This document shows positions 3,010 to 28,535 of a DNA stretch of 64,000 nucleotides, in pieces. Each line of letters begins with the position of its first letter. Position 1 is the stretch's first letter. The notes beneath the pieces were generated by a model. It did no database searches. It saw only the letters and a program-made list of their open reading frames with translations, and had not been told where the DNA came from. The DNA comes from a virus, in IMG/VR virus record IMGVR_UViG_3300021964_000016; one strand, 5' to 3'. The position numbers were made by a program, and so were the translations under genes.

Positions 3010-6000
3010 TTATCCTAGAGCAACCGCAAACGCAATTGCTTCGTTGGTTGACGCAAAACTTGCTGAGTCGGCATTGGCACCTGCTGGTCCAGTTTCTCCT
3101 CTTTGTCCTATGGAAGAATATACTTGCCACGTGCTATTTATATAAATGAACTCAATGATACTTTGTCCGAGATCAAGTTCAAAATCATCAGCATACCCCT
3201 CAATCGTGCTTCCGTTTCTTCCTATAATTAGGGAGTTTGTAGAGAAGTTACCAACATCTATGATCTTAACATAATCGCCTGTAGATGGCGATGCTGGGAG
3301 AGTAACAGTAAAACTTCCACCAGTGGTATCTGCTGCAATTCTTTGAGAAGAAGTTGCTGTTACGTTACTGGTTACTGCGGTATAGTTAGTAGAGAAAACA
3401 CGGAAGTCCGAATCAAATCCAAGATAACTACCGCGCAAGGCACCAAAGTTAAACGTACCCAATTCAAAAGAAGAATCGTCAAAGTTGATTGTTTGATCTG
3501 GTACAGAACTATCTAATCCATCTTGAATCAGATTTGTGAAAACATACCACTCACCGTTTGTCGCGTCTCTTACAAAACCGCTTCGGCGAATAGTAGAACC
3601 ACCATCTGTCGAATATCTACCGACGACACCCATATCAACAGTATCTTGAGAATTACTGTCGGCAACTTTGATGATCGCATTTGTAATACGAAGGTCGTTC
3701 TGAGACGTAATATTTTGTGTCCCTTGAACAGTAAAGTCTCCGGTAATGACCAAATCGCCGTTAATAGTGGCAGCACTAAATTCTACTGAATCTGATGTGC
3801 CAACACTTTGTCCGATAGAAATAACACCAGTGCCAGAACTATATGATACACCAGTTCCAGCAGAGAAATGCGCCCTTGTTTCAGATGCACTTGGTCCTTG
3901 GTAAGATATGATTCCAGTAGCAGGATTATAGGAGAGACTTCCGTCTCCTCCACCGTCATTTACATCGATAGCATTCTTAGCATCAGAGTCTGCACGAGCA
4001 GTTGTGTAATACAGATTAGAACCTTCGCTAAGGTTTGTTGTGCTAGAAGCACCCAAATCACTATCAAAGCGAGAAGTCGTGTAATATAGATTACTTCCTT
4101 CTATTAGATCGCCAGTATTGTGATTGCTAATGTCTGAAACAGTACCAGTTACATCACCAATGAAGTTGCCATTCGCTTGAACATTACCAGTAGCAAATAT
4201 ATCAGTACCACGAAGGTTTCCACCGATACCAAGACCACCAACAAGAACTAAAGAACCATTGGTTTTAGCAGTGGAGTTTGTGGAAGAAAATAGTTTTATA
4301 TCACCATTACTATCCATGGACACAAGTGCTGTGCCCCCAGATAAATCGTATGGAGATTCTCCAACATTTTTTCTTATTCTTAATCCGAAGTTATTAGAGG
4401 GATACCCAATAACCATCTGGTTTGAGTCAGCAGTTCCAGTAACACCAATATAATGCCTGAACTGATTTTTTATCCCAAGGGCAATTGCTGTAGAAGTATT
4501 CGCGCTATCGTTGGATGCAAATAAAAATGTGGTATTTTGAGAGTCTCCATAAAACGAGTTCTCGTTATAAGACAAACCACCGTAGTTTTGCTGGTATGCA
4601 ACGGTTGACCCAAGAGTTATACTAGTGCTAGCAGAAAGAGTACCAGAAGAAATGCTTGTTGAAGAAAGGGTATTAATCTTAGCAGAATCATAGGTCAAAT
4701 CCTGCCCAGATAATTTGGTTATATAACCACCTTGTACATCGACACTATCAGCAGTGATTAGCGCAAATACAACATTGTCAGTAGTTCCGACTGATTGACC
4801 AATCGCAACCTCACCATCGATAATTGTTACACCTGTACCACCAGAAAAATGTGCGCGTGCTTCAGAGGCAGAAGGACCAGTATAAGTAAAGACACCACTG
4901 GCGGCATCATAACCAAACGAACCATCGCCGCCTGCATCAGTAGCAGATACCGCATTCTTTGCATCAGAGTCTGCACGAGCGGTGGTGTAATAGAGGTTTG
5001 TTCCTTCTGCTACATTGGTTGTGGTTTTTGTAGCAAGTCTAACATCAAAGTCGCTATCTGACCTTGCGGTTGTGTAATAGAGGTTAGTTGAACCTTCTGA
5101 TAGTTGATCTGTATTATTGTCACCAAAGTCACTATCAAAGCGAGCAGTCGTGTAATATAGGTTAGTTCCTTCAGAAACATCGGTAGTGGATTTGGTCGCT
5201 AATCTAGTATCAAAATCTGTATTAGCGCGAGCAGTGGTGTAATAAAGATTAGAACCTTCCGTTAAATTTGATGTGGTTTTTGTAGCAAGTCTATCATCAA
5301 AAGCACTATCCGCTCTTGCAGTGGTGTAATAGAGGTTTGTTCCTTCGCTAAGATTTGTAGTTGACTTTGCAGCGAAGTCAGTATTAAAATCAGAACTGGT
5401 ATAGTGTTCACCTATGGTTACAGAAAACTGTCCTGTCGCTGAGTCATACGAGAGGTCTCCAGCAGCAGAAAAGAGTCCTTTAATTTGAGTAGCAGAACGA
5501 TCTGAGTCTGTGTAAGAAATAACGCCAGTGTTAGCATCATACGACAGGTCGCCAGTAGCAGAAATAAGCAACCTTACAGCAGAGTCTGTTCTTTGACTAT
5601 ATGAAAATTCGCCAGTAGAGGAATTGTAACTCAGATCGCCCGCAGCAGAAAACAGACCCTTGATTTGTGCAGCGGTTCTATCAGAATCAGTATAACTAAA
5701 TGTGCCAGTGGAAGAATTGTAACTCAAGTCTCCGCCAGCAGAGAAAAACCCTCTTATATCTGCTTGGGTTCTCTGTGTGAAACTGAAAACCCCGTTTACG
5801 GAATCATAAGTTAGGTCTCCACTCGCATCAAACAGACCCCTAATTTGTGCAACGGTTCTATCAGAATCTGTATAAGAGATGACACCAGTTGCAGAATTAT
5901 AACTTAGATCGCCATTAACAGAGATAGCATTTTTAGCGTCACTATCTGCTCTTGCAGTGGTGTAATAGAGGTTAGTGCCTTCTGTTAAGTCTGAAGTAGA

Positions 6001-6894
6001 CTTCGTTCCAAAGTCAGAGTCAAAGTCAGAGGTTGCATAATTTGTTGTTTCTGTAAAAGAAAAATCACCAGTGTTGGGGTCATAACTCAGATCTCCAGAA
6101 GCAGAAAATAAACCCCTAATTTGTGCGGGGGTTCTATCAGAATCAGTATAACTTATAACACCAGTGTCGGGGTCATAACCTATATCACCAGAACCTGATA
6201 AAGCATGTCTGGCATCACTGTCAACCCTTTCGAGGGTATAATATAGATTAGTTCCTTCAGTAAGATCTGATGTAGACTTCGTAGCAAAATCAGAATCAAA
6301 ATCTGCTTTTACATAGGACGTTACGCCAGATAAACCAGAACCGTCTCCAACAAACGAGTTGGCGGTTACTGTGCCAGAAAAGTTTGCGGAGTCGCCGCTC
6401 AACAAACCTTTTACTGTCATACCTGAAAGAGTTATATAAACTCTTGCGTTAGTGGATGCGCTTTGAGAAGCAGCGTCTGCTGCTCCGCCATCAGGAACGT
6501 CTAAGTAAAACCCAATTCTTCGAACACCAGTGCTATCAGCAGAATCAATAGAAGCGAGCCAGAGTTCGTCGCTTAGATGCCCCATACCAGATTGTATGGT
6601 GTTCGAAGTATACTCGGTGACAAACTTTAATTTGACAGTATCTTCTGGCCAGGAGACAAACTGAGAACCAGAACCACCGAGAGATAGAGTTTCTAATATG
6701 ACTACAGAATCAAAAGACGTACTGGTATTAAAATACTTGGATCCAGTTATAGTTTGACCAGTAGACTTTGTTACATATTCGTTTGAACCAGTTTTTATAT
6801 CTGTCAAGTCAGAGTCTAGGGCAAGGAAGTTGGAATCCATCTCATCAAATGTAAGAGCACTGCCCTTATTATTTCTTAATGTGAGATCTGCCAT
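3010..6894 (-). CDS. Tail fibre protein with 'STxDLxEGTNLYYT' and 'SAxGDLSYDxxTG' repeats (1294 aa)
   Basis: N-terminal LTLRxxKGSALTFDEMDSNF anchor, many EGxNLYYT repeats, C-terminal ADTTGGSFTVTLPASP fibre module, AIAFAVALG terminus typical of marine myophage fibres. Confidence 0.75.
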   Translation of the reverse strand: MADLTLRNNKGSALTFDEMDSNFLALDSDLTDIKTGSNEYVTKSTGQTITGSKYFNTSTSFDSVVILETLSLGGSGSQFVSWPEDTVKLKFVTEYTSNTIQSGMGHLSDELWLASIDSADSTGVRRIGFYLDVPDGGAADAASQSASTNARVYITLSGMTVKGLLSGDSANFSGTVTANSFVGDGSGLSGVTSYVKADFDSDFATKSTSDLTEGTNLYYTLERVDSDARHALSGSGDIGYDPDTGVISYTDSDRTPAQIRGLFSASGDLSYDPNTGDFSFTETTNYATSDFDSDFGTKSTSDLTEGTNLYYTTARADSDAKNAISVNGDLSYNSATGVISYTDSDRTVAQIRGLFDASGDLTYDSVNGVFSFTQRTQADIRGFFSAGGDLSYNSSTGTFSYTDSDRTAAQIKGLFSAAGDLSYNSSTGEFSYSQRTDSAVRLLISATGDLSYDANTGVISYTDSDRSATQIKGLFSAAGDLSYDSATGQFSVTIGEHYTSSDFNTDFAAKSTTNLSEGTNLYYTTARADSAFDDRLATKTTSNLTEGSNLYYTTARANTDFDTRLATKSTTDVSEGTNLYYTTARFDSDFGDNNTDQLSEGSTNLYYTTARSDSDFDVRLATKTTTNVAEGTNLYYTTARADSDAKNAVSATDAGGDGSFGYDAASGVFTYTGPSASEARAHFSGGTGVTIIDGEVAIGQSVGTTDNVVFALITADSVDVQGGYITKLSGQDLTYDSAKINTLSSTSISSGTLSASTSITLGSTVAYQQNYGGLSYNENSFYGDSQNTTFLFASNDSANTSTAIALGIKNQFRHYIGVTGTADSNQMVIGYPSNNFGLRIRKNVGESPYDLSGGTALVSMDSNGDIKLFSSTNSTAKTNGSLVLVGGLGIGGNLRGTDIFATGNVQANGNFIGDVTGTVSDISNHNTGDLIEGSNLYYTTSRFDSDLGASSTTNLSEGSNLYYTTARADSDAKNAIDVNDGGGDGSLSYNPATGIISYQGPSASETRAHFSAGTGVSYSSGTGVISIGQSVGTSDSVEFSAATINGDLVITGDFTVQGTQNITSQNDLRITNAIIKVADSNSQDTVDMGVVGRYSTDGGSTIRRSGFVRDATNGEWYVFTNLIQDGLDSSVPDQTINFDDSSFELGTFNFGALRGSYLGFDSDFRVFSTNYTAVTSNVTATSSQRIAADTTGGSFTVTLPASPSTGDYVKIIDVGNFSTNSLIIGRNGSTIEGYADDFELDLGQSIIEFIYINSTWQVYSSIGQRGETGPAGANADSASFASTNEAIAFAVALG

Positions 6895-6991: not shown

Positions 6992-7372
6992 TCAGCTTGG
7001 TGCTTCGTAAGTCAAAGAAGAGATGGTGATCGTGTCGCCAGCACCGATAGCAGTAGACGACAAGACGATGTCACCACCACCACCAGTAGCAGTAACAGTG
7101 CCATTGAAGCAAGAATCGCCCGCACCGTCGAACACAGTAAACTTACTTACAGTTCCTGCATTACAGTCACTGTCGCCTTTAATAGCAGCAGCAGTAGCGA
7201 TACCATTAGATGCGGCACCGAATGCAGTAGCACTGAAAGTTAGAGTAGCGACAGCAGAGTCGTTCACCGAACCGTCTTGGAACACAATGGTTCCTGGTCC
7301 GCTGACGTCAATTTTGTCTACTACGAGATTAGCGATGTCATTGCGAACATCAGTTGGATGAGTAACAGCCAT
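6992..7372 (-). CDS. Small virion structural protein (126 aa)
   Basis: AGGAGA SD upstream; A/G/T/S-rich beta protein ending 'GDTITISSLTY'. Confidence 0.6.
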   Translation of the reverse strand: MAVTHPTDVRNDIANLVVDKIDVSGPGTIVFQDGSVNDSAVATLTFSATAFGAASNGIATAAAIKGDSDCNAGTVSKFTVFDGAGDSCFNGTVTATGGGGDIVLSSTAIGAGDTITISSLTYEAPS

Positions 7373-7384
7373 TTTTTATTTCTC

Positions 7385-12954: not shown

Positions 12955-13626
12955 TTAGGGGGTTTCAATTTCCTCGATTAGCATTTCTGACATTTTTCTA
13001 CCAGTTTCATCACAATTAAACATGAATGCCATTGTACATCTCAAAGAATTAGTACGAGCGGCATGGTACAGTAACTTATCAGGTTCATCATATGTACCAT
13101 AATATCCATACTTACATTGCCAACCTTGCACGTCTGGTATTATAATGTGTTCTTTTGTCAATGGATCTATATGCTCCCATTGCCCGTCGCCAGTTTCGGA
13201 CCAAGTAAAGATAATATTGTATCCAGGAGCATTAGCATTATTATGCCAACCTATAAACCCACCAGGAGGATAAATGGCACTCAAAGCGCGATTTCTTGCT
13301 CCAGACCAAGAACAAAGAGCAGAAACAGAATTTTCAATCTCTTCTAATATTCGGATCTTTTCTGACGCGTCATTGTATTCAAACTTTCCTACTTGAATAT
13401 CAACTCCTCTTAGCATCTCAGGATACCCATCATGCTCTCTACCTTTCCAAACAATGTGATCAAGATAATCTTTGTTCAACCAATCTTCTGCGTTTTCTTC
13501 TCTAGGAATGTTCCTAAGTTTATCCAGATCTATAGACTGTACCGTATTTGATATTGAATGTAAGATACCTTGCAAAGTTTCATTAGCGATATTTACTGGG
13601 TTCATTCCAGGTTTTAAAAAACTCAT
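12955..13626 (-). CDS. Cupin / 2OG-Fe(II)-oxygenase-like protein (223 aa)
   Basis: YPPGGFIGWHNN...LYHAART..R: HxN...H...R jelly-roll pattern. Confidence 0.5.
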   Translation of the reverse strand: MSFLKPGMNPVNIANETLQGILHSISNTVQSIDLDKLRNIPREENAEDWLNKDYLDHIVWKGREHDGYPEMLRGVDIQVGKFEYNDASEKIRILEEIENSVSALCSWSGARNRALSAIYPPGGFIGWHNNANAPGYNIIFTWSETGDGQWEHIDPLTKEHIIIPDVQGWQCKYGYYGTYDEPDKLLYHAARTNSLRCTMAFMFNCDETGRKMSEMLIEEIETP

Positions 13627-13627: not shown

Positions 13628-14380
13628 TCAAATGATCTCTATGTCAGATATTTTTCTAGATGCTTTGGCGGATAAATGTATCAACGAAGTTCCCTCTGGC
13701 ATTGGGTGGGTGTGTCTGTTAAGGGAAGTCCAATAGTTCCACCTTAAATCTTCCTCAAAAATGCCAACCTTTAGTTCTTTGTACTTAGGTTCTTTCTCAA
13801 CCAACCACCAAAGAGTGAACTGATCCCAGCATGCTAGTTCTCTGGGGTAATTTTCGGTGTCCCAAGTAACCCCATCTTCTTTGGTCGGCCACCATTTATT
13901 AGCATGTTGTTTGACGTATAATTCGTACCAATCTTTCATAAACTCCATGATAATGTCAGTTTTTTTATACAAACAAACAGCACCGCAAAGAGTGAAAGTT
14001 CCTCCAGGAAATTCCGTGTCCATAAATATATGCCATCTATCTCTAGGCAACCCTGTGAACACCATATCATTATCACCAAGTTCTTCAAAAACATTGGCAA
14101 TATTTTCACTGATACATGTCATATCGGCGTCGATATAAAAAGTGTTATCATAGGGGGTTTGTGACATACCCCAGAGTTTTGCCCTGTAGTGGTTATCGCA
14201 AATAATTAAATGATCTGCTTCCTCTGCCCTAGAGTCTAAGAACCTCTCTTCGGTAACAAGACAAATGTTTGCTTCTGGGTAATAATCTTTTATATCAGAA
14301 ATAAGATTGGTTGCCCAAGAATAATATATTGGTTCGTTTGACGCAACGATCAGATATCCATTATTTTGATTCGGTTTCAT
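13628..14380 (-). CDS. GT-A fold glycosyltransferase (GT8-like, 250 aa)
   Basis: TPYDNTFYIDAD DxD motif, WDQ motif, 'RWNY...IH' C-terminal pattern. Confidence 0.75.
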   Translation of the reverse strand: MKPNQNNGYLIVASNEPIYYSWATNLISDIKDYYPEANICLVTEERFLDSRAEEADHLIICDNHYRAKLWGMSQTPYDNTFYIDADMTCISENIANVFEELGDNDMVFTGLPRDRWHIFMDTEFPGGTFTLCGAVCLYKKTDIIMEFMKDWYELYVKQHANKWWPTKEDGVTWDTENYPRELACWDQFTLWWLVEKEPKYKELKVGIFEEDLRWNYWTSLNRHTHPMPEGTSLIHLSAKASRKISDIEII

Positions 14381-17322: not shown

Positions 17323-17324
17323 GA

Positions 17325-19568
17325 TTAAGTTTCAGAAACTCGGCAATATAGTGTATATGTATGTATAGTTTCTGCGGTAGAGGTTAAAGTTTCGCCCGCA
17401 AATTGACTAGAAAAAGAACCTGTATATTGCCCTGTGAATTGAGTGTTATATACTCCAGAATATTGTCCTGTAAAGTTTTTTATCCTTACGCCAGCAAAGT
17501 TTCCAGGCAGAGGTCCCAAGAATTCTCCTTCATAATTTCTGACCCCAGCATAAGAACCAGAATAGGTTCTGGAACCAGAATAAGCAGCAGAATAGTTTCT
17601 AGAACCAGAGAATTGTTGTACAGCAGGTCTTTGTCCGGAAAAGGTTTGGTCTTTTTGTCTTGAACCAGCATAATTCGCAGAATAGTTTCTTGCTCCACCG
17701 TATTGTCCAACTACTGATGCATAATTTCTAGAACCGCCATATTGCGCAGAATAAGTTCTTGAACCAGAATAATCAGCAGAAAAGTTTCTAGAACCAGCGA
17801 AAGTTCCAGGAATCGTGACCAGTTCCTGTCGAGAACCTGCAAACTGGAATGGCCCGCCAGTGAACTGTGCAGATCTTGTTCCTGTGTACTGTAATACTCG
17901 GACTCCAGCAAACTGTTGGGGGTAGGCAGGGTTTGTTCTTTGTCCTGAAAATACACCAGGAACTGGTTCTAGATCAAAAACATCAACCGTTCTTTGCCCT
18001 GCGTATTGTTTGGGAGCAACACCATCATATTTAACAATGGACGAGCTGTAGTTTACAACTCTTTCTGGTTCAACTGGTGGTCCAACTACATCAACACCAA
18101 CAAAGTAATCTGTATATCCTCTGGTAAAAGAATCTTCACCAGTAAAGTTCGTAGGTCCTACAGTCCTTGTCCCAGCAAAGGGGAATTGACGACTTCCTGC
18201 GAATTGTCCTGTGAACTGTATAGATCTAGTTCCTTCAAACTGAGCAGAAATAAATTGAGTATTGGTGACCTCCCTAGTTCCTGTAAACTGTCGATCACCA
18301 TTAAAGTTTCCTGGATTGGCCACCCAAGTCTGTCTACCACCAGTATATTGGAAGGTGTAATTTCTGGAACCGCCATACTGTCCAACTACTGATGCATAGT
18401 TTCTGGAACCGCCATATTGCGCAGCATAGTTTCTTGAACCACTGTAAGCACCAGAATAGTTTCTGGAACCAGAATATCCGATTGCCGAGATAAAAGTCCT
18501 TTGTCCAATAAATTGCGCAGGAATTTGCCTAACCCCTTCGTATTGAGAAGCATAGTTCCTTGATCCATCGTATTGTCCAACTACGGATGCGTAGTTTCTG
18601 GAACCGCCAAAAGAACTACTATAACCCCTCACTCCTGTGAAATTTACTGTCCTAACCCCAGAATAATCCGCAGAGAACGGGGCAACAGAAAATCCTGTAT
18701 ACTGCCCAGTAAAATTACCAGTATACTGCCCTGTGAATTGAGTTGTAAATGTGCCCAAATACTGTAGAATTTGTGTGGTGTTTCTAGTATCCAACGCAAC
18801 ACCACGAGCAACCCAAGTACCAGTGTATCCTTGATCTGCTGGAGTTCCGTCAGAATCAGAAAGTAAAAGGTAATCGCCAAGACCAGAATTTTGCTCAGCA
18901 TGACGCATAGCAAAATATGCAGAACGAATAGCATTGGTGTCAGACATTTCCTTAATGTGGTGTTGGTCAGAATCCTTTAACTGTAATGTATAAAAGGTTG
19001 GAGGAGAGAACGGACCAGTAGTAGATCTTTTTCTGTATAGATTATACGCTGTCGAACCGTTAGTTAAAGTGTCTTCAAACACCGAGGACTTATAAGTTTC
19101 ATAAGTTCCACCAGGACTACTCCCACTCAACCTAAAGCAACCTCCATCTTCGTTAGACAGAGCATTACTCAGTAGTCTCTTCCCCCAGCGTAAAAACGAG
19201 TCCGAATCCATCTCATAAATGTCGCCGCTAGAGTCAGCAGCAACTGTTCGATGCCATTCAGCAAAAGCATCTACAGAATCACCTTTATTTTGATAAAGAG
19301 TAGTTGTGGTAGAACCTGTAGAGAGAGAACTTCCAGGGTGAGTGCCAACTGCTTCGTTATAAAACGTATCAGTATAAGTGCCTATGGAGGAATTAGTTGC
19401 ATCTGTAGAAAGGGCACCATAATATGCAGAATCTCCAACCGGAAATTCTGTTGGTATTAATAGAGAACCTTGTTGCCCATAATAACTTTCTTGCGAAGAA
19501 GGGATGGCATTCATGGCACCACCGCCTAATGAAGAAAGTGTTAGCGGTATAGATTTTACTAACGACAT
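17325..19568 (-). CDS. GSRNY-repeat fibre protein B (747 aa), paralogue of 14887-17322
   Basis: Shared KSIPL, DTFYNEA.GTHP, GTWVARG.ALDTRNT and TYTLYCRVSET motifs. Confidence 0.7.
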   Translation of the reverse strand: MSLVKSIPLTLSSLGGGAMNAIPSSQESYYGQQGSLLIPTEFPVGDSAYYGALSTDATNSSIGTYTDTFYNEAVGTHPGSSLSTGSTTTTLYQNKGDSVDAFAEWHRTVAADSSGDIYEMDSDSFLRWGKRLLSNALSNEDGGCFRLSGSSPGGTYETYKSSVFEDTLTNGSTAYNLYRKRSTTGPFSPPTFYTLQLKDSDQHHIKEMSDTNAIRSAYFAMRHAEQNSGLGDYLLLSDSDGTPADQGYTGTWVARGVALDTRNTTQILQYLGTFTTQFTGQYTGNFTGQYTGFSVAPFSADYSGVRTVNFTGVRGYSSSFGGSRNYASVVGQYDGSRNYASQYEGVRQIPAQFIGQRTFISAIGYSGSRNYSGAYSGSRNYAAQYGGSRNYASVVGQYGGSRNYTFQYTGGRQTWVANPGNFNGDRQFTGTREVTNTQFISAQFEGTRSIQFTGQFAGSRQFPFAGTRTVGPTNFTGEDSFTRGYTDYFVGVDVVGPPVEPERVVNYSSSIVKYDGVAPKQYAGQRTVDVFDLEPVPGVFSGQRTNPAYPQQFAGVRVLQYTGTRSAQFTGGPFQFAGSRQELVTIPGTFAGSRNFSADYSGSRTYSAQYGGSRNYASVVGQYGGARNYSANYAGSRQKDQTFSGQRPAVQQFSGSRNYSAAYSGSRTYSGSYAGVRNYEGEFLGPLPGNFAGVRIKNFTGQYSGVYNTQFTGQYTGSFSSQFAGETLTSTAETIHTYTLYCRVSET

Positions 19569-19581: not shown

Positions 19582-20256
19582 TTATGGGTTTAGCAACACA
19601 GAACTTCTATTGTATACGTTTGGTATCCTAGCATTTACCTCGTCAATAGCACCATGAACAGTATTGGCAGAAATCTCGCTGGCGGTTATGCTTCCTGTGC
19701 CACTAGATGGAAGGGTGATGCTACCACCGACTGTCACATTACCACTATCAAATGTCATCGCAGTAACAATGCCCGATTTAATTAAAACGTTGCCTGAGTT
19801 GTTAGTCAGAGAACCCCATTCCACAGCGTTGTCTTTAAGGACAATACTGCCTCCATTAGCATCAAGATTTACATTACCTTCAGCATTCAGTATAATTTCA
19901 TTAGCAATGACCTCAAAGTCATCTGAACCTGCAGTAATATTTTTTGCAGATGCATCGAATACTGCTTCAATCTCGTTGATTGCGCCAACAACCGTCTTTG
20001 CTTGTGTGGTTAGATCAGCACCAGAACCACCACCAGATCCGTGTAAGTCTGAATCGAGTTCGTTTAATGCATCTACCAGAGTTCCAGCAGTAAAATCGTC
20101 AAGACCACGAAGAGTTTTATTGCCTCCTGGACCTATTGCTGAATCGAGATAACTTAGATCTGAATCGACATTATCGCCATAGTAATTCAGGTCTTGAATT
20201 AACTGCTGGAAAGTGTCAGTAGTTTGAAAAAGTGGGTGTGCGCTATCAAATGCCAT
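19582..20256 (-). CDS. Fibritin/whisker-like virion protein (224 aa)
   Basis: Repeated TLVDALNEL / TVVGAINEI / TVHGAIDEV segments; N-terminal TDTFQQL anchor. Confidence 0.55.
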   Translation of the reverse strand: MAFDSAHPLFQTTDTFQQLIQDLNYYGDNVDSDLSYLDSAIGPGGNKTLRGLDDFTAGTLVDALNELDSDLHGSGGGSGADLTTQAKTVVGAINEIEAVFDASAKNITAGSDDFEVIANEIILNAEGNVNLDANGGSIVLKDNAVEWGSLTNNSGNVLIKSGIVTAMTFDSGNVTVGGSITLPSSGTGSITASEISANTVHGAIDEVNARIPNVYNRSSVLLNP

Positions 20257-20488
20257 TTTGCTTTCCTACCAATCCTTTTATAAGATCTTTGAGTTCTGAG
20301 ATCTCGTCTTTAAGAGAAGCGAATTCGCTTTCTAGTTTCAATTTATTTTCTTTTTGTTCGATTGAAATCGCCTTGCGCCGTCGCGCAAGACGGATCTCCT
20401 CTTCATTGGTATTTATAACAGTTCCAGTAGCAAGGTTCTTGTATAAACTACTAGAACCTTCTACCTTTTTAAAATGCGCTTCAGACAT
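20246..20488 (-). CDS. Small conserved coiled-coil protein (80 aa)
   Basis: KVEG..SLYK...TG.VINT pattern usually found after DUF4815 genes; translationally coupled. Confidence 0.6.
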   Translation of the reverse strand: MSEAHFKKVEGSSSLYKNLATGTVINTNEEEIRLARRRKAISIEQKENKLKLESEFASLKDEISELKDLIKGLVGKQNGI

Positions 20489-23400
20489 TATATCAGAGCA
20501 ATAGCGCGAATGTTACCTAACACTGGTGCTTGACAAGTATTTGTCGATTTAAGCACAACCTTCAGTTGGAAAGAGGTGAAATCGGGAAGAGTACCTGTTT
20601 CCCCTCCGATAAGATATCGATATTCCGTAAAGGTAATATTTTCGTCATTATTCACCCAAGGTGAAGGCGCAGGATCGTTTTGAGCAGTTGCTAAAATCCA
20701 AGAATTCTCGTACATATTCTCGTCCGCTTCAGCACTTGTCCTATAGTATAGATCAAAACTTGATTGTGGAGGTCTATACATGTCCAAAAGAACTTTAATT
20801 CCGTTTGCTGCTTGTCCTAACTGCACGATCTTAGTTATGTGCTTGGAAGGAGTTGTTCCCAGCGTTGGGTGAGACTCACGGATATAACCTTCAGGACGAT
20901 TCTCAGCTACTCCTGCTGCGTCTGAATCGATCGGTTGATTGTCAATAACGTTATTCATAACGACCATACCGATACTTTGCGTATCAATTATAGGCGAAAC
21001 GTCAGAAACATACCCAGAACTCACACCTCCTCGGAAAAGGTCTCCACCAAAAGTCGACTTTTGATTAGTGGTCAACGTTGCGCTAACCACAATAGAAGGT
21101 GCTGAAAGAACAGAATCTTCTTGATTTTGATTGGCAACATATTTTGGTGTTTTAAAGAAATATGGCAAAGTATTTGGCATAGTTGTATTGGTATTGTCTA
21201 TATTAAACCGTACATCAACACCTTGTGTTTGCGAGATTTTAGAATGAGAAGTTCCGCTAACAAAACTTGCGTTGTACACAATACCAGTGTTTTCAAATTC
21301 GTGATCTTGGAAATTCAACAATGCGCGGTCAATGAAAAATCCTCTATTACTTGCAACAGAATCGCTTCCAAAAGTTCCCACTGAGGTGAAGGCACTATCG
21401 AGAGAAATATAATATCCTGCTATATCTGGATTTATGACTTTGTTCGCGGAATCCATTATACTAGAACCAAACACACCGTTATACTTGGCCGCAGAATCCA
21501 GTCCTGTTATTGCTGCTAGGTCTCCCCAGCCAAGTCCATGCCCAAGGTGGTCTACTCGCAATCTGTTAAGATTATCTGAGTCTACACGCAAACTCGAAGC
21601 ATAGTTATGGATATGCCTTTCGAGCGGTTCATTATAAAAGTTTGCTCCACCTGTTTCTTTAAACTTCGCGGTGTAAATCCGATATGGCATGTCTTGATTT
21701 TGTTTTGGCGTCCAAGTAGAACCATTCTGAGAAAGGAATAATGAACCTTTCGATGGTTGTTTTGAAACCCTTTTAGAAGTAGAACCCAACACAAGATCAT
21801 AGGTTGTCGCAACATATGCTTCGTACTTATCGCACTCTGCTAAAAGAACAAAGGCATATTCTTCTCCTGAGCGCAAAAATACTGGTTCTTCAAACTCAAA
21901 GGTTACTGGATGAGCAAGAACAGAAGCCAAAGTTTCAGTCTGTCCTGATATAGCAGTCCTAACAGCAGCAGCAGTTTTATACACTCTGTGTTGTTCGCTG
22001 ATCACGTCTCTATCAGGAACACCACTACTTACTGTCCTTAGTTGCAATTGTAGTGGAACCTGAGTATCTGATACGCTAGGTGCGCTTCGAATAAACGTGT
22101 CAATTTTGGTTACAAAAACTCCAGGAACACCAGCACCACCGTCGACGGTGAATGTTTGTGCAAGGGGATCCCTTGGTCTCCAATCTTCGCTAACTCCAAT
22201 AAGTTCTTCACTCTCAGTAACATACTCATCTTGAACAGTAACCACCCGAGTATGCGCAAAGGTTCTTTCTCTTAATGAAATTCTTCCCCATGCGCTATAA
22301 GAAGTTGATGCACGGGACAACGCCCCATCAGGGTTATACGTTGATATGTCTAAAAGTTTAACCTGATGCGTTCCACAACGGAACTTCCAACCCATTTCAT
22401 TCAACGCATTAACAGATTTTACCGAACCATATTGTTTTGCATACTTGCGAGAATTTGCAATCCACTGATTCCATTCTTGCTGAGTGTTGAATTGCGTAGA
22501 AAGGGGAATAGGAATCACAGAATTATTAGGAATCCAGAGTTCAAAGAACAATTCTCCGTCGTTATCAGATATCAAAGTTCTTTCAGCATCGCTACCGAAT
22601 GGGTGACTTTTCAAACTTACGTTTGTTTGCGCAACTCCTCTTCTGTGATCGCCAGCAGAAATAGAAGAGTTATACTCAGTTTCTGTTCTACTTCGAACCC
22701 ACTGATTCATTTGTATTCCATTCATGTAACACCAGTAACGAGTGTTCGGGCGCATTCCTTGTGCCTTAGCAAAAATTCTTCTCTGCCTCATGAAAGGTAC
22801 TGAAAGAATAGCAACAGTTCTGTCACCAAGATCGCGAGTGAACGTTTGATCGCTGACAACCTTAGTTCTGACGCTCTGCGTGACTCGATATGTCTCTGTT
22901 CTAGTTCCACCTTGTAAGTCTACCAAATCAAACCAGTTGTCTTCAGTTTGTTGGTTATCACGACCAAGGGCAGTATTGCTAGAACCAAGGAGCGCACCAA
23001 AAAGTCCAGCAGGTCCAGTAGGTTCTGTTCTAGGGCGAGGAACCCAGCGAATAATAACAGAAGTTCTGGAATAAGTAAAAGTTCTTGGTACTAAAGGTTC
23101 ACCAATTCGACGGATTATAGTACCGCCATTAATATGCTTGTCTGGCAACCTTCGAGTATCGAACCAAATATCTCTTGATGGGTTCAAACGAAGAATACCT
23201 TCTCCCATGAAGACGTTAAATGGGTTTACATTATAATATCCAAATTCTTCATAGTTTCCAGTAGATTTCCAAGAAATCATCTCATTTTTCATACTCGTGT
23301 CTAAAACGTCTATGTAGTCTAACATAAGGTTTTCACCTTTCTTGATTATGTTAGATTTTGTTACACCACGAGAAGAATATAGATTGGCAGAGTCATAATT

Positions 23401-26178
23401 AAACCCAATATTCTCTGCTTCTAACTTACAATGCATAGTGAAGTTACCCTCATCTAAAGATGAGGTAGCAAAAGACGCATCGTCTATAAAGCTGTTGTTA
23501 ATAATTGAGGCAGTGAACGCATAACCTTTAGTGAAATCGTCTACAAAGAAACCAGTCTTGGAGCGGATATTACCGTCAGCATCAAGTTCTACGAGGTTAG
23601 ATGCTTCCTGTTCAAGAGCAGTCAAAGAAACAGTTTCTTCAAGACGAGCAACTCTTCTCTCAATATCGTGTATGTCGTTCATTTTAAACCCACGATATTG
23701 TCGACGGTTCCAGGACAGGTCAGAAGAACTCTTAGTGTTTCCTCCAAGAGCAACATCAAACAGAACCATTTCTCCCTTTTTCTCTCCTGGAGGTACTGGT
23801 TGTAAAGATTCTTCTCCTTGGTTTACTGCAACCACTGGGCGAAAATCGCCGTCATATTTCAAAACCACATGGTCTAGTCGGTGATTATAAAATTGAACAC
23901 CGTAGTTTATTTGATCGTCGTTTCTTGGCAACCTAAAACGATCTCCAGAAGTCATTGCACTAGAATCAGGATCTAGTTTTGATCGGAAGTCTAGGTAGTT
24001 GTGTAATGGATATATTCGACCGCTTTTATTAGAAACATAATTCGGAATATCGCCGTAGTCAAACCAAGTAGAATCTTCTATGTCATAAGAATTAACAGAG
24101 AAAAAGTCTCCGCCCGATCCCCAAGTAAAGTATGCGACCTTGGCTCTTATATCTGTAACGGCAGCAGCAACCCCGTCTGGGATTAATTTTACAGGTCCGT
24201 AATAATTGTCTCTTTGCCCTGGATCAAAAGCGACTTGGTGCAGAACATTTGAACCAGCACTATCACTATCGTATGCTGCAATCAAAGAAATACCATCATA
24301 CAATTCATTAGCAGTAATAGAAAGAGGATCAATAGTAAAGTCACTATCTGGCGAAGTACGAGAAAAATCGAACCAATTTTCTGAATATGTTTTAGACTTT
24401 GGTGATGGGTCATCAACGCTCACATAATAGAAAATTTCATATCGAGAAGTTGTCCCACTTAGAGTACTAATAGTAGCTGTGTTTCCAACTACTGATATTT
24501 TACCGTCAATATTCTCTACGGTATTGTTATCCTTTCTAATCGCGATCCATTGCGCCTCATCTGTAAAAGATTCGTCAGCAGCAATTGTGATAGTCACTAC
24601 ACCACCACTTGCCGTTTTACTCGTCTGTTCTTGAACAGTGAAATTATCCACACTGACTTGTTTGACCCTTCCTCCAGGGACTTCAAAAAGACTGGTATTC
24701 GTTTCTGGAGAAGTTACATAAGTCTGATTATCTTCCCTCAATGGTTTTACTGCTTTTGCAAAATCGGTAGAATCTCCGATAGCAAATACGTCTCTAAAAT
24801 TATTCGCGCCAGACATTTGTATGTCGAAAAGGTGCATTCTGTATCGAGCACTGTCTATAGCAGAACCTCTGTCGACAAGAGATTTCACTCTGGTATAACC
24901 AATAACAGCCGAATCCGCATCAAATAGAGCAATTTTCTTTTGATTTGTTATTGCGTTCTCAAAATCACTATCTAAGTTGCCCAGAGAACTATCGCCTGAA
25001 CTTAGGTTGTCAAAGGCAACGTAGTTTTTGTAAGAAACATTAATGTTTTGATCTGAGTCGGTAACAAAAGAAGTTGGTTTCGGTACAACTAAACTTTTTC
25101 CGACTTTATGCTCTAGGCGGAATCCATCTAAAAATGCTAGTGGACGCACCCCTAACTGTTCAGCAGGAATGTCATAAATCATTTGAGCACTGTCATCGCC
25201 TTCTCTAAATTGTATCTCAAAGTCGTTGACAATAAAGTTTCCATGAGTATCATGGTGGCGATGTGCTAGTCGTTTCTCAAATTGATTAAAATTGTCAGTT
25301 CCTTCTTTTATTTGTACGATTTTAGAAGCACGAACAGTTGCAAAGGAAACAAAATCTTCTGCTACTGCAACCGCGTCTCTCGTAGACAAAGTCATCTGGA
25401 TTCTATATCGATCGGCACCAGGAGCAGACAGATTAGGTCGAGTTCCTTGATTGTCGTACAAAGCATCGTCATCAGCGGTAGTTACCACATCTTGCGTTAC
25501 TTCAAACCCTACTTCTGCATCAACATAAGAACTGTATTTTGATATTGCTAGAGTTTGTTTAGGAACGTATACAAAGTGTCCTTGAACGTAAAATTCTGCT
25601 CTTTGTACAGAAAAGAGGACACCCTTTCCAGTAGAGTTTATCGCCGAACCGCTATGTTTTGTTCGAACAGTAAGACTATTACTACCGTTTACTAACGTTT
25701 CTGCATCATCAAACGTTAAAGATTCGGTTTGAACGTCTGTGGAAACACTTTGTTGATTAGCAGAGACATACCTTCCATACAAGATATGAATCGTACTCTC
25801 ACCCGCGTTATCGTCTTTCGCTTCTTGAATATAACTTATTTGAAACTTTAGTCCGCTCGTTCCTGTTTTTGATTCGCCTGTAAACTCTAACCCAATATAG
25901 TCGGCGGCATCAAGGGCAAAAGATGCGTCTGTGACGATAACATAATCAACGATGTCAGTTCCAGCACCAGATGATTTCGGAGATATAGCAGCACCATCCA
26001 TGAAGATGTTGTTTGCCATTCTGGTGATTTGAGTTTGTAAAATAGTCTGTAACTGATTGAGTTCCCTCGCTTGGAGAGCACGTCCAGAATTGAATAGAAC
26101 CTTATGGTATCCAGCACTATCTTTAAAATCGTCCCTATATGTATCAGAGAACGTTGTTGATGTAAACTGATTAGGCAT
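20488..26178 (-). CDS. Large virion structural protein, DUF4815/VrlC-like (1896 aa)
   Basis: Y.DDF...GYHKVLF.SGRALQARELNQLQTILQ N-terminus; KTGFFVDDF; RDPLAQTF; SLFLSQNGSTW; FQLKVVL..LRAIAL-type C-terminus. Confidence 0.85.
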   Translation of the reverse strand: MPNQFTSTTFSDTYRDDFKDSAGYHKVLFNSGRALQARELNQLQTILQTQITRMANNIFMDGAAISPKSSGAGTDIVDYVIVTDASFALDAADYIGLEFTGESKTGTSGLKFQISYIQEAKDDNAGESTIHILYGRYVSANQQSVSTDVQTESLTFDDAETLVNGSNSLTVRTKHSGSAINSTGKGVLFSVQRAEFYVQGHFVYVPKQTLAISKYSSYVDAEVGFEVTQDVVTTADDDALYDNQGTRPNLSAPGADRYRIQMTLSTRDAVAVAEDFVSFATVRASKIVQIKEGTDNFNQFEKRLAHRHHDTHGNFIVNDFEIQFREGDDSAQMIYDIPAEQLGVRPLAFLDGFRLEHKVGKSLVVPKPTSFVTDSDQNINVSYKNYVAFDNLSSGDSSLGNLDSDFENAITNQKKIALFDADSAVIGYTRVKSLVDRGSAIDSARYRMHLFDIQMSGANNFRDVFAIGDSTDFAKAVKPLREDNQTYVTSPETNTSLFEVPGGRVKQVSVDNFTVQEQTSKTASGGVVTITIAADESFTDEAQWIAIRKDNNTVENIDGKISVVGNTATISTLSGTTSRYEIFYYVSVDDPSPKSKTYSENWFDFSRTSPDSDFTIDPLSITANELYDGISLIAAYDSDSAGSNVLHQVAFDPGQRDNYYGPVKLIPDGVAAAVTDIRAKVAYFTWGSGGDFFSVNSYDIEDSTWFDYGDIPNYVSNKSGRIYPLHNYLDFRSKLDPDSSAMTSGDRFRLPRNDDQINYGVQFYNHRLDHVVLKYDGDFRPVVAVNQGEESLQPVPPGEKKGEMVLFDVALGGNTKSSSDLSWNRRQYRGFKMNDIHDIERRVARLEETVSLTALEQEASNLVELDADGNIRSKTGFFVDDFTKGYAFTASIINNSFIDDASFATSSLDEGNFTMHCKLEAENIGFNYDSANLYSSRGVTKSNIIKKGENLMLDYIDVLDTSMKNEMISWKSTGNYEEFGYYNVNPFNVFMGEGILRLNPSRDIWFDTRRLPDKHINGGTIIRRIGEPLVPRTFTYSRTSVIIRWVPRPRTEPTGPAGLFGALLGSSNTALGRDNQQTEDNWFDLVDLQGGTRTETYRVTQSVRTKVVSDQTFTRDLGDRTVAILSVPFMRQRRIFAKAQGMRPNTRYWCYMNGIQMNQWVRSRTETEYNSSISAGDHRRGVAQTNVSLKSHPFGSDAERTLISDNDGELFFELWIPNNSVIPIPLSTQFNTQQEWNQWIANSRKYAKQYGSVKSVNALNEMGWKFRCGTHQVKLLDISTYNPDGALSRASTSYSAWGRISLRERTFAHTRVVTVQDEYVTESEELIGVSEDWRPRDPLAQTFTVDGGAGVPGVFVTKIDTFIRSAPSVSDTQVPLQLQLRTVSSGVPDRDVISEQHRVYKTAAAVRTAISGQTETLASVLAHPVTFEFEEPVFLRSGEEYAFVLLAECDKYEAYVATTYDLVLGSTSKRVSKQPSKGSLFLSQNGSTWTPKQNQDMPYRIYTAKFKETGGANFYNEPLERHIHNYASSLRVDSDNLNRLRVDHLGHGLGWGDLAAITGLDSAAKYNGVFGSSIMDSANKVINPDIAGYYISLDSAFTSVGTFGSDSVASNRGFFIDRALLNFQDHEFENTGIVYNASFVSGTSHSKISQTQGVDVRFNIDNTNTTMPNTLPYFFKTPKYVANQNQEDSVLSAPSIVVSATLTTNQKSTFGGDLFRGGVSSGYVSDVSPIIDTQSIGMVVMNNVIDNQPIDSDAAGVAENRPEGYIRESHPTLGTTPSKHITKIVQLGQAANGIKVLLDMYRPPQSSFDLYYRTSAEADENMYENSWILATAQNDPAPSPWVNNDENITFTEYRYLIGGETGTLPDFTSFQLKVVLKSTNTCQAPVLGNIRAIALI

Positions 26179-26189: not shown

Positions 26190-27719
26190 TTAAAGGTCTA
26201 TTACAATCTTAATGTCTTCTGTCTGTTCATTATCTCTGGTAACTGGTGACCTGTTGTCTATATAGATCACTTCTCCAGAGAAGTTGTTTACCTCAGCAGG
26301 GCGAAGAACGGGTTGCCCTCCAGCTGGGTTGGGGATAACAGAAATACCACTACCTCCAGCACCAACAGAAACAGTGTCAGAATCTGTGAAAGGTTTAAAT
26401 CCCGTTTCTCTTGTTTGATGAACATACAAAATATCGTTCGTCTCGTCAAAATAATCTAGGACTGCTCTTGCGTTAGAAACACTACCTATAACAGTTTCAT
26501 CACCAAGAATATTGGAATAATTCAACCCGCCCGCAACATACAATTTTTTAAGCGCATTAAGTGTAACATCGCTTGCAGCAGAATCTCCAGAAAACCCAGG
26601 ATATTGTGCAGAATCTTTTAGTGGGTTTTTAATAATCCCTATTTGACGGAAATCGTTAGTTACTTGGAAATCGTTATTTTCTGTTCCGTCTAAAGTTGCG
26701 TTAAACATTATAGCAGAAGAGTTTAAATCTTTTATGGGGTTTCCTCCCATACCAGAATCATTAGCAATAATTGCGCGCAGTTTTGCCCCAGTTCCGCCAC
26801 CTCCAGATACAGTAATAGAAGCATCAAAATAATTTTTGCCGAAAGTAAACGTGCCTACACTGTCCCCGTCAGTAGAGTCTGCCTTCATAATTACTTCATA
26901 TATTGATCCATTATGAATACGAGCAAATGCTTGCGCTGGAGTAACATCAGAATCTAATTGAGCAGAATCGAACTTTGTTAACGTATTTCTAGAAATTGGT
27001 GTAATGGTTATTGTCGGTTTAGAAGTAAAACCAGAACCACCGCTGTCTACTGCTATTCCGATGATTTGTCCTGGAATCGCATTGTTTTGTAATCCAAATT
27101 GTTGTCTACGAGAAACTGATAAATTATCGAAAGGAATATTTGTTTGAGAAGAGTCTAACACCTTTTCAACAGGCATGTAAGCAGAAGTAATATATTTTCT
27201 GGATTCCGCTGCGCCAATATTGTACATGAACTTCCAGATATATCCATCGTCACCAGCAGAAAAGGGGTTTCCTGAGGTGTCTATTGGTTTATACAGAGAT
27301 TGTCTAGGAATTGCTTGAGAGGTATACCCTTTTTGAAGGCAAACATAAACATTATCGTCGTCAGTAAGAACGTAATACGGGTTTTGAATATCGCCAGAAG
27401 CAGAAATCGTTGTATTAGAATTATACTCATCGTCCCATGCTTCATAAAAGTTACCAGCAGTCCAACTGTGCCTTGGTACAACATAGGAAACGTCCGGAAC
27501 CAATTTCATTGACTGGATAGATGCTTGAAAATCTTTAACGGAGCGATTGCTTGGAGTTGGTGCAGGTGGTTCTACGTCAGAATCCCATTCCTCTGATCTT
27601 CCAATCGCCAAATAAAATCTATCCGAGTCTTGCCCTGAATCTAATCCAACGTTTTGGGTGCTGTTATAGAGATCAGTTAATATATCTCTTTTTAGACTTT
27701 CAGTTATAGTAGCGGCCAT
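26190..27719 (-). CDS. gp8: Baseplate wedge subunit gp8
   Basis: YLAIGRS, VVPR..W, DGYIWKFMY, NDFRQIGII.NP, SGEVIYIDNR.P.TR..EQTEDIKIVI motifs. Confidence 0.9.
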   Translation of the reverse strand: MAATITESLKRDILTDLYNSTQNVGLDSGQDSDRFYLAIGRSEEWDSDVEPPAPTPSNRSVKDFQASIQSMKLVPDVSYVVPRHSWTAGNFYEAWDDEYNSNTTISASGDIQNPYYVLTDDDNVYVCLQKGYTSQAIPRQSLYKPIDTSGNPFSAGDDGYIWKFMYNIGAAESRKYITSAYMPVEKVLDSSQTNIPFDNLSVSRRQQFGLQNNAIPGQIIGIAVDSGGSGFTSKPTITITPISRNTLTKFDSAQLDSDVTPAQAFARIHNGSIYEVIMKADSTDGDSVGTFTFGKNYFDASITVSGGGGTGAKLRAIIANDSGMGGNPIKDLNSSAIMFNATLDGTENNDFQVTNDFRQIGIIKNPLKDSAQYPGFSGDSAASDVTLNALKKLYVAGGLNYSNILGDETVIGSVSNARAVLDYFDETNDILYVHQTRETGFKPFTDSDTVSVGAGGSGISVIPNPAGGQPVLRPAEVNNFSGEVIYIDNRSPVTRDNEQTEDIKIVIDL

Positions 27720-27731: not shown

Positions 27732-28535
27732 TTATGCTAATGTGATGCCAGTATCTGTAATCAGATGCCAAGCAGAGTCTGACCAGATTAAAGAACAAGC
27801 AGCGTGTTGAGCGACTTGTATTGTTGTTCCACCCGCCAAATTTGCTGGGGTGATCGTAGCAGTACCAGTATTGATATTTACAAACTTTTTCTCATCTCCT
27901 ATCGTTACACCGTCTGGTAGGGCAACCGCAAAAGGTGTAGATGATTTGTTAAGAAAAGAAGTTGGAAGTTTGACGCTGGCAGTAGATCCTGTAGTTGTAA
28001 TTGTTTCAGTAGTAAACACAAGTCTGCTGTCTACATGAACTACGCCGTTGTTAAGTGGATGAAGATGAAGATCTACATCGCCTGAATCCCCCGTAACCCC
28101 AATGACAACTCCATAAGAAGAATCGCCGTTTTTAACTTCAAAATGATTAACTGCGTTTGGAGTACCATTAAAAGAAATAATTGGGTTATCGTTGCTATCG
28201 TGAATGTCATCGGTAATGACGTCAACCAACGTTTTGTTGGTCAGGATATCTGTCGTGTCCTTTAATACAACGGTGCCAGTAGCATTAGGGAGAGTGATAG
28301 TTTTATTACTACCTGAAGTAGTTGCTGCAACTAATTTTGTATCGTATGTCCCATTTTCAAAAATAATTGAACCGTCAGAATCAAAACTGATGTTTGTGGT
28401 CGAAGAGACAGAATCCCCAAACAGCAGAAATAAAGACCGAAAATTTGTATTGATCTTATCTGCTGCCTGACGTAAAGTATCGCCAGTACCATCATTGGCA
28501 GTAGTACCGTTGTTTAAAATTTCTCTGGTTGCCAT
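27732..28535 (-). CDS. gp9: Baseplate wedge tail-fibre connector, gp9/gp10-like N-terminus
   Basis: GTTANDGTGDTLRQAADKINTNF motif; start taken at MATRE. Confidence 0.75.
   Translation of the reverse strand: MATREILNNGTTANDGTGDTLRQAADKINTNFRSLFLLFGDSVSSTTNISFDSDGSIIFENGTYDTKLVAATTSGSNKTITLPNATGTVVLKDTTDILTNKTLVDVITDDIHDSNDNPIISFNGTPNAVNHFEVKNGDSSYGVVIGVTGDSGDVDLHLHPLNNGVVHVDSRLVFTTETITTTGSTASVKLPTSFLNKSSTPFAVALPDGVTIGDEKKFVNINTGTATITPANLAGGTTIQVAQHAACSLIWSDSAWHLITDTGITLA

Follow-up and report, generated by a model that had tools for sequence, protein, structure and literature searches.

A D-S-[A/D] motif concentrated in the tail appendages of marine T4-like phages is a candidate site for sugar attachment by phage-encoded glycosyltransferases

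The 64,000-nucleotide stretch analyzed here (the window) belongs to an uncultured T4-like myovirus (IMG/VR record IMGVR_UViG_3300021964_000016), and the peripheral virion proteins that it encodes contain the dipeptide Asp-Ser (DS) far more often than expected. The enriched unit is D-S-[A/D] (DS[AD]), a short linear motif that occurs at high density and with turnover of its sites in the tail appendages of a clade of marine T4-like phages. It is carried by neck and whisker-like proteins, by the gp7-, gp8- and gp9-like wedge proteins, by a giant DUF4815 protein and by the fibres, and selection acts against any Asp-Ser in the densely packed proteins of the inner baseplate and hub. We consider D-S-[A/D] a good but unproven candidate for a site at which sugars are attached by phage-encoded enzymes.

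Expected peptide counts were obtained from per-protein shuffled sequences. An accumulation of DS in outer virion proteins had been reported in an initial annotation of this stretch, whose counts for the 1294-amino-acid (aa) fibre, the 126-aa and 224-aa proteins, the DUF4815 protein, gp8 and the gp9-like protein were all reproduced (Table 1). Counts are low in gp6, gp25, the gp5-like proteins, gp53, gp48, gp32 and NrdB (0-2 each), and the strings LDSGQDSD, FDSAQLDSD, ADSTDGDSV and YDSDSAG are found in window proteins. Measured against shuffled sequences, the enrichment is real and limited to peripheral virion proteins. Among the outer proteins picked by that annotation, DS ranks first of 289 testable dipeptides by excess (84 versus 40.2 expected, z 7.9), a rank that it keeps when the repetitive fibre is left out (49 versus 23.7, z 5.9). 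Non-structural window proteins contain 27 DS versus 27.3 expected. In the inner baseplate/hub set (28593-41095) DS is the most depleted of 296 dipeptides (8 versus 25.5, z -3.8), and none is encoded over 34766-40340, where 10.8 are expected; this depletion had been missed initially.

The excess depends on the residues on both sides of the serine. Outside the big fibre, DSA occurs 19 times versus 2.7 expected and DSD 20 times versus 2.5; DS followed by other residues is overall close to expectation, with smaller excesses for DSG and DSV. Aspartate is needed before S-[A/D] (39 versus 5.2 expected), and ESA, ESD, NSA, NSD, DTA, DTD, DSE, DSL and DSI are all absent, with 2.0 expected for each of DSL and DSI; DST is found 3 times versus 2.9. 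Threonine is avoided also at the level of the dipeptide (DT 20 versus 36.3 in the outer set, z -3.0). The order of the residues matters as well: DS outnumbers SD (84 versus 48), DSA (19) contrasts with 2-4 occurrences of any other order of D, S and A, and DSD (20) with DDS (3) and SDD (1). Virion proteins encoded between positions 47 and 29918 account for 61 of the 62 DS[AD] sites of the window; gp6, gp25, the hub and spike proteins, gp53 and gp48 contain none, and all non-structural proteins together contain one. The motif-bearing proteins also include two fibre-like proteins of 811 and 747 aa and the gp7-like protein, but not the 1625-aa and 980-aa structural proteins. Sites are isolated, with only two DSDS strings among window proteins. 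About half of those in the 1294-aa fibre fall in four short repeat families (isytDSdrt, taraDSdakn, fDSdfg and dltyDS) with a spacing of about 25 aa, and these sites are thus not independent of each other.

Several simpler origins of the pattern were considered and rejected. GAY-TCN always contains GANTC, and avoidance of GANTC was therefore a candidate; there are 278 such sites versus about 234 expected, and serine codon usage within DS equals the background, which places the signal at the protein level. Permuted tripeptides are flat, which argues against local composition. Paralogy or a common repeat module does not connect the carriers, as only the 811/747-aa pair (42% mutual identity) and, elsewhere, two glycosyltransferase (GT) genes of family GT25 are related. 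Avoidance of hot spots of Asp isomerisation does not fit either, since the more labile DG is not depleted in the inner set (30 versus 21.1), and a canonical calcium-binding motif is contradicted by the lack of additional enriched acidic positions near D-S-[A/D].

The same pattern was found in relatives of the phage. Its closest isolates are Kyanoviridae, with a gp8 identity of merely about 28-30%, and a megablast search of the window against isolate phages returned nothing useful. IMG/VR contigs at 98% and at 56-67% identity retain the excess (gp8 DS[AD] 6-7 versus 0.8), and a gp9/gp10-like orthologue at 61% identity has 9 DS versus 3.0. Long syntenic contigs were found with the GT25 gene of the window as query, and the baseplate and fibre regions of five of them (G004-G008, 25-50% identity) all show the full pattern, with z scores of +8.8 to +20.9 for distal DS[AD] and of -1.9 to -4.4 for DS in the inner set. 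The gp7-like orthologues have 2-4 DS[AD] versus about 0.5, and orthologues of the 811- and 747-aa proteins in G005 and G008 reach 17 versus about 1. DS falls to 2 versus 20.3 in the inner block of G008, and the inner baseplate of G005 gives 2 versus 17.9. For capsid, sheath and neck proteins the 87% complete G005 was used in place of the window genome. Its appendage block, which starts with a gp15-like neck protein, includes the fibres and ends with the gp7-like wedge, contains 88 DS[AD] versus 9.8 (z 25.5), and its capsid, portal, sheath, tube and terminase proteins and 118 other open reading frames are near expectation.

More distant phages do not share the pattern. Distant gp8 and DUF4815 orthologues are at expectation, and about 40 distant loci gave 105 inner DS versus 101 (43 orthologues) and 52 distal DS[AD] versus 66.6 (90 orthologues). 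S-H25 and P-SSM2 show no motif excess, so that the motif cannot be ascribed to Kyanoviridae fibres in general. Connector and fibre proteins rich in DS[AD] were seen in a single outgroup, the isolate C48C1 (OQ984149), on which a literature search yielded nothing useful. Its gp7-like connector (L052:15221-19927, plus strand) includes seven or more copies of a highly regular repeat of about 88 aa, each with three or four DS[ADEK] sites. A distant T4-like phage (L022) encodes three paralogous HEAT/PBS-lyase-like repeat proteins (1362-2255, 7209-8045 and 8579-9343, plus strand), which are made of GN-DS-HRDKLVN-DS-DxxVR units and interleaved with baseplate genes.

Within the clade, the motif behaves as a property of regions rather than of fixed positions. 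In gp8, sites are grouped in about 8-9 recurrent loops, within which lineages often differ in register by 1-4 residues, and several sites fall in clade-specific insertions. Across four protein families, the exact alignment column is conserved between lineages for 34% of motif serines and 24% of other serines, and motif aspartates are conserved no better than other aspartates. This weak conservation at a steady density indicates that sites turn over while density is maintained. In an AlphaFold (AF2) model of gp8 with a predicted local distance difference test (pLDDT) score of 78, 10 of 13 DS serines are in coil, and low-confidence loops hold 5 of the 13 compared with 4 of 39 other serines (p 0.03). 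The sites thus favour flexible loops in this model, in keeping with the initial annotation. Only one of seven DS[AD] and two of 13 DS sites lie at helix starts (sites 189 and 369, just before short helices), which is not what a helix N-cap, with the motif in the first helical turn, would produce.

The window encodes at least five soluble GTs of the GT-A fold, two of family GT25 and three of GT8 type, so that the initial estimate of about six GT-like genes was roughly right. One of them, the fibre-module GT, is encoded between fibre genes, is better conserved than the fibres, and occupies the same position in the fibre modules of G004, G005, G006, G008 and C48C1. The window protein has no Pfam match (including PF01501) and no PDB sequence match; its atlas neighbours carry PF03407 (51%) or GT8 (20%). 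In its AF2 model (pLDDT 92) the top Foldseek matches are glycogenin, UGGT and LgtC (probability 1.0, E 8e-9), and a VIA comparison gave a Z of 17.2 with a root-mean-square deviation of 3.8 A over 198 residues. Further structural neighbours are GlyE, the Skp1 galactosyltransferase, UGGT and the chlorovirus capsid GT A64R (Z 14.3). Glycogenin, GlyE and the Skp1 galactosyltransferase are cytoplasmic enzymes that glycosylate proteins. Residues D84 and D86 (YIDAD) and H235 are invariant in 30 homologues and, by analogy, might form the metal and nucleotide-sugar site. Judged from the model, this protein appears to be a glycogenin-like GT8-type GT-A enzyme and a candidate for the initiating enzyme. 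The two genes adjoining it are conserved too: the 223-aa gene has orthologues at 36-40% identity at the same position in G004-G008, and the 163-aa gene at 30-48% in G004, G005, G007 and G008 as well as a homologue in C48C1.

The remaining GT genes form a cluster in which Pfam detects two GT25 enzymes, two methyltransferases, a sulfotransferase and a carbamoyltransferase. The GT25 pair matches PF01755 at 1.7e-10 and 1.5e-14 (41.5 and 54.7 bits versus a curated cut-off of 24), and the two proteins are related (hhalign probability 99.9). Families for the genes designated unk262 and unk222 were assigned by scanning their orthologues one by one. Nine of 12 unk262 orthologues match PF01501 (GT8; best 6.4e-9), with an invariant IIDAD and histidine and a weak match to LgtC, and eight of 12 unk222 orthologues match PF03407 and five of 12 GT8, with an invariant DTD and histidine. 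In local hhalign comparisons among the family-less genes, these two were the only pair linked (probability 59). The third such gene, unk208, always ends the glycan cluster and belongs to a marine-phage family with about 1,500 unannotated homologues and a mean column identity of 71%. Searches of Pfam, PHROG and NCBIfam found no match for unk208, for the fibre-module GT or for the 223-aa and 163-aa proteins, and PDB profile searches with unk222 and with a narrow unk208 profile gave nothing useful. With a broadened unk208 profile, the seven best PDB matches were all CstII, aligned from residue 1 at weak E values of 0.09-0.4, and the alignment contains the signatures GNGPS, CN and SG..A..G.D. The combination of GNGPS, CN and GFDS resembles CstII/Maf-type transferases, a lead according to which unk208 is possibly a CstII-like transferase. 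Across relatives, unk262, GT25b, GT25a, unk222 and unk208 constitute the core of the cluster and the tailoring genes vary: the methyltransferases and the sulfotransferase occur in only some relatives, and the carbamoyltransferase is variable and also present in the C48C1 cluster. None of the GTs and tailoring enzymes has hydrophobic segments, and all are predicted to be soluble.

Motif and GT set co-occur across the relatives, and the motif is missing from orthologues in phages that do not have these GTs, as the initial annotation had anticipated (Table 2). Neither the fibre-module GT nor unk208 turned up in any of 50,697 isolate phage records other than that of C48C1, which has both. Together, these data indicate that the fibre-module GT and unk208 track the motif and that GT25 does not; GT25 was rejected as a marker gene because P-SSM2 has GT25 without the motif and C48C1 the motif without GT25.

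The strictness of the residues, the unrelated folds of the carriers, the restriction to one compartment and one clade, the turnover of sites and the purge from inner proteins fit a linear motif that is read by a trans-acting factor, and the best candidate for this factor is a soluble phage GT acting in the cytoplasm. The motif serine would then be an acceptor that is O-glycosylated in the cytoplasm during or before assembly. Soluble GT-A enzymes of the phage would add sugars singly from nucleotide sugars, with neither a lipid carrier nor an oligosaccharyltransferase; the fibre-module GT and/or the core cluster enzymes (unk262, the two GT25 proteins, unk222 and unk208) would start and extend the glycan, and the variable methyl-, sulfo- and carbamoyltransferases would tailor it. 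The outcome would be a glycan coat, variable among lineages, where the virion comes into contact with the host surface and its surroundings. That the serine of D-S-[A/D] serves as a cytoplasmic O-glycosylation sequon on tail appendages is the explanation we prefer, at somewhat less than even confidence; more tentative still is the complete scheme, in which DS[AD] in exposed loops and repeats directs phage-encoded cytoplasmic O-glycosylation with tailored glycans and the inner machinery has been purged to stay unmodified. Glycosylation by phage enzymes had already been proposed in the initial annotation. The enrichment, the GT set, the fibre-module GT and the location in loops speak for that proposal, whereas its match to the Bacteroidetes sequon did not hold. 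GT25 alone does not predict the motif.

Known systems offer partial parallels. Tailed-phage virions assemble in the cytoplasm. The general O-glycosylation sequon of Bacteroidota is D-(S/T)-(A/I/L/V/M/T) (PMC8550257, PMC12871550), with a hydrophobic or methyl-bearing residue (L, I, V, T, A, S or M) after the acceptor. It is used on exported proteins only: a periplasmic oligosaccharyltransferase moves the complete glycan onto them from a lipid carrier (PMC12871550). Given the different compartments, the analogy appears to fail mechanistically, and no oligosaccharyltransferase or flippase was seen among window proteins. The phage motif shares with this sequon its length of three residues, a strict Asp (no Glu) before the acceptor or candidate acceptor, alanine allowed after it and enrichment in a class of target or candidate target proteins. 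The phage motif, however, avoids threonine as acceptor (neither DTA nor DTD occurs), accepts Asp as often as Ala at +1 and never Leu or Ile, and its targets are cytoplasmic and the phage enzymes soluble GT-A transferases. The analogy thus appears to fail on three of four features, and the proposed likeness to the Bacteroidetes sequon is a poor match.

Another parallel is SdgB, a cytoplasmic nucleotide-sugar-dependent enzyme that O-glycosylates serine in a minimal DSD (PMC8561734). In the SdgB/SdgA system (PMC8561734, PMC3794999) the modified serine lies in D-S-D on surface appendage proteins, for which protection of exposed proteins has been proposed, and about half of the phage motif sites are DSD and match this minimal acceptor sequence. 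SdgB, however, acts on long tandem SD repeats, whereas the phage sites are isolated, half of them are D-S-A and SD is not enriched; in addition, SdgB is a GT-B enzyme (GT4) and the phage GTs found are GT-A enzymes (GT8-type and GT25), family searches having revealed no GT-B family among window proteins. Virus-encoded enzymes are known to act on virions. According to two papers (PMC10877033, PMC12801897) that cite Freeman et al. 2023 (PMC10527164), phage-encoded GTs modify capsids and tail tubes of mycobacteriophages, that is, of siphoviruses of Actinobacteria. As in these phages, where the GT genes adjoin structural genes, the GT8-like gene of the window lies between fibre genes; here, however, capsid and tube lack the motif, the candidate targets belong to the baseplate periphery and fibres of T4-like myoviruses from the sea, and the motif implies a defined sequon. 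Chloroviruses and giant viruses glycosylate capsids and fibrils with their own enzymes (PMC9614988, PMC5408694). They share cytoplasmic virus-encoded GT-A enzymes, outer virion proteins as targets and non-canonical sites with the scheme proposed here, and PBCV-1 A64R is a structural neighbour of the fibre-module GT; they differ in infecting eukaryotes, in bearing N-linked glycans on their major capsid protein and in using unrelated sequons.

A number of points weigh against O-glycosylation of the motif. The modification of the serine at DS sites, the enzyme responsible, the glycan and its role, be it shielding, adhesion or host recognition, are what we infer. The co-occurrence of motif and enzymes rests on few lineages that are each other's closest relatives and could thus reflect common ancestry, and no fibre-module GT was found on the 63% complete contig of G007, which bears the motif. 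Exact sites are weakly conserved, and misaligned loops could make turnover look greater than it is. A promiscuous cytoplasmic enzyme might be expected to leave non-structural proteins depleted in DS, and this is not clearly the case. In the regular, helical-looking repeats of the C48C1 connector and the L022 HEAT-like proteins, D-S-[ADE] most plausibly caps helices, so that part of the fibre signal may be structural. GT8 and GT25 are, moreover, the classic families of core extension in lipooligosaccharide (LOS) and lipopolysaccharide (LPS). Finally, GT clusters of cyanophages are usually read as serving modification of the host surface or of DNA (PMC12801897).

The last two points lead to the alternative that survives best, namely that the acceptor of the glycan cluster, and perhaps of the fibre-module GT, is host LPS/LOS or another non-protein molecule modified during infection, for example to block superinfection or re-adsorption, and that the link to the motif is one of descent. 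We regard such a role as rather doubtful, an estimate made for the cluster separately and regardless of what the motif does. Four cluster GTs belong to the families of LgtC/RfaJ (GT8) and LgtB/Lic2B (GT25), whose genes are likewise clustered and variable in composition; NodU-type carbamoyltransferases, sulfotransferases and methyltransferases tailor glycans generally, and the GT25 of P-SSM2 is found in a phage without the motif. However, LgtC/RfaJ and LgtB/Lic2B act on lipid-linked oligosaccharides of the cell, whereas one GT8-type gene here lies among the fibre genes and is better conserved than these. A host-directed role also leaves the motif and the DS purge unexplained, and the one isolate with the fibre-module GT and unk208 is precisely the motif-bearing outgroup.

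The motif might instead be purely structural, a helix N-cap or tight turn of fibrous, repeat-built appendages without any reader in trans and without connection to the GTs, which we think improbable. In the C48C1 connector it does occupy fixed spots of the 88-aa repeat (seirtDSevnali, ldlvtDSditsat and laqliDSadatai), in the L022 HEAT-like proteins it precedes every helix, and both the repeat-borne half of the fibre sites and gp8 sites 189 and 369 would suit a structural role. In the gp8 model, however, most sites are in coil or low-confidence loops, at least nine non-paralogous carriers have different folds, and Thr, Asn and Glu are excluded although they cap helices or form turns well. From lineage to lineage positions change at a density that is kept, orthologues of the same fold in other T4-like phages lack the motif, and a structural role does not account for the purge of DS from inner baseplate proteins.

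Equally, the motif could be read by something other than a GT, be it an enzyme of another serine modification such as phosphorylation or a partner in non-covalent recognition: an assembly chaperone, the docking of fibres to neck or baseplate, or the binding of divalent cations or host surfaces by acidic loops. The signature of selection indicates a recognition motif without naming its reader, all carriers belong to a set that fibres could contact, and a homologue of fibre-assembly chaperones is encoded at 7555-7905, near motif-bearing fibre genes. Nevertheless, we consider this unlikely. No kinase or comparable enzyme was found among window proteins, no acidic positions of a DxDxDG-type calcium site flank the motif, half of whose sites are DSA, harmless binding motifs need not be purged from inner proteins, and the genes that track the motif are GT-like. 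Chance, composition, internal repeats or a post-hoc choice of proteins can be counted as refuted: although the outer set was picked after counts had been seen and repeats inflate those of the fibre, DS is extreme in both directions among about 290 dipeptides, permuted orders are flat, single proteins reach p<=0.0015 for DS excess, and the pattern was replicated blindly in homology-defined sets of four further lineages and genome-wide in G005.

If D-S-[A/D] is indeed O-glycosylated by phage enzymes, a widespread group of ocean phages would bear a phage-made and rapidly diversifying glycan coat on tail fibres and baseplates; marine metagenomes contain hundreds to about 1,500 homologues of the marker families. 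Such a coat would affect host recognition, protease resistance and stickiness to particles or mucus, and on how the many 'LPS-like' GT genes of marine phages are read. A review of the Bacteroidota system calls the motif of that phylum the only known bacterial O-glycosylation sequon. D-S-[A/D] would thus be the first defined one outside Bacteroidota and would mark the first glycosylated receptor-binding apparatus in a T4-like phage; it would also provide a simple, portable three-residue O-glycosylation tag with soluble enzymes. Even without glycosylation, a tripeptide that is enriched up to about 9-fold overall (z up to +25) in one virion compartment and purged next door is an unusual and unexplained signature of selection.

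Table 1. Window features in the appendage, inner baseplate and glycan regions, with observed versus expected counts of DS and DS[AD]
Feature	Position	Strand	Evidence
1294-aa tail fibre	3010..6894	-	DS 35 vs 16.7; DS[AD] 23 vs 3.0; PHROG structural/tail matches
126-aa virion structural protein	6992..7372	-	DS 3 vs 1.2; DS[AD] 2 vs 0.3; phrog_3758
223-aa conserved gene adjoining fibre-module GT	12955..13626	-	DS = 0
Fibre-module GT (250 aa), GT8/glycogenin-like GT-A (predicted)	13628..14380	-	AF2 fold and Foldseek
163-aa conserved gene adjoining fibre-module GT	14361..14852	-
Two paralogous fibre-like proteins (811 and 747 aa)	14887..19568	-	DS[AD] 3 vs 0.7 and 4 vs 0.36
224-aa whisker-like protein	19582..20256	-	DS 5 vs 2.0; DS[AD] 4 vs 0.35, p=0.001
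1896-aa DUF4815 giant baseplate-associated protein	20488..26178	-	PF16075; DS 21 vs 13.9; DS[AD] 15 vs 2.0
gp8-like baseplate wedge protein	26190..27719	-	PF09215; DS 13 vs 4.7; DS[AD] 7 vs 0.74
gp9/gp10-like wedge protein	27732..28541	-	PF07880; DS 7 vs 2.0, p=0.001
441-aa wedge protein, gp7-like position, edge of motif zone	28593..29918	-	PF23786; DS[AD] 2 vs 0.4
Inner baseplate/hub block, DS-depleted (gp6, gp25, gp5-like spike, amidase protein, gp5 OB/lysozyme, tail protein, gp53, gp48)	29924..41095	-
unk208, core gene of glycan cluster	50685..51311	-
unk222, GT-A nucleotide-sugar transferase, core cluster	51304..51972	-
Two paralogous GT25 glycosyltransferases, core cluster	51969..53365	-	PF01755
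Two methyltransferases and a sulfotransferase, variable tailoring genes	53332..55195	-	PF08241, PF13578, PF03567
unk262, GT8 glycosyltransferase, core cluster	55195..55983	-
NodU/CmcH-type carbamoyltransferase, variable tailoring gene	55999..57552	-	PF16861, PF02543

Table 2. Motif and GT genes in the window and in other phages
Genome	Motif	Fibre-module GT	unk208	GT25	Other GT genes
Window, G004, G005, G006, G008	strong	yes	yes	yes	unk262 and unk222 present
G007 (63% complete contig)	strong	not found	yes	yes	unk262 and unk222 present
C48C1 (isolate)	connector and one fibre only	yes	yes	no	GT8-like gene, analogous cluster
P-SSM2	none	no	no	yes	no other GT families found
S-H25	none	no	no	no	none
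L022 phage	none in structural proteins	no	no	no	none

Nearly all genes of the window are on the minus strand. Searches with Pfam and PHROGs identified gp8, gp9/10-like, wedge, gp6 and gp25 proteins, gp5-like spike pieces, an amidase-bearing protein, gp53, gp48, a gp26-like hub protein and the tube, as well as gp32, Hsp20, a 2OG-Fe(II) oxygenase, PhoH, NrdA/B and the glycan-enzyme cluster. The 1625-aa structural-looking protein (8043-12920, minus strand) consists of 17.6% Ser with highly repetitive tripeptides, has no DS[AD] (1.7 expected), and has the most negative GC skew of the window (-0.17). Its gene has no counterpart in G004-G008 and was possibly acquired recently, without having adopted the motif. 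Other dipeptides deviate from expectation as well: ER (69 versus 11) and SG (133 versus 66) are over-represented in the set of other large structural proteins, and in the non-structural set (41140-63999) DH is over-represented (22 versus 9.7, z 4.2) and AS depleted (10 versus 27.8, z -3.6). The only clear plus-strand gene (41140-41646), located between gp48 and a tape-measure-like gene, encodes a TnsA-like endonuclease (PF08722, 5e-15) and probably represents a mobile or homing element. The minus-strand gene at 59767-60228, adjoining a DUF6433 gene, encodes a SegE-type GIY-YIG homing endonuclease (PF19835, 6e-34).

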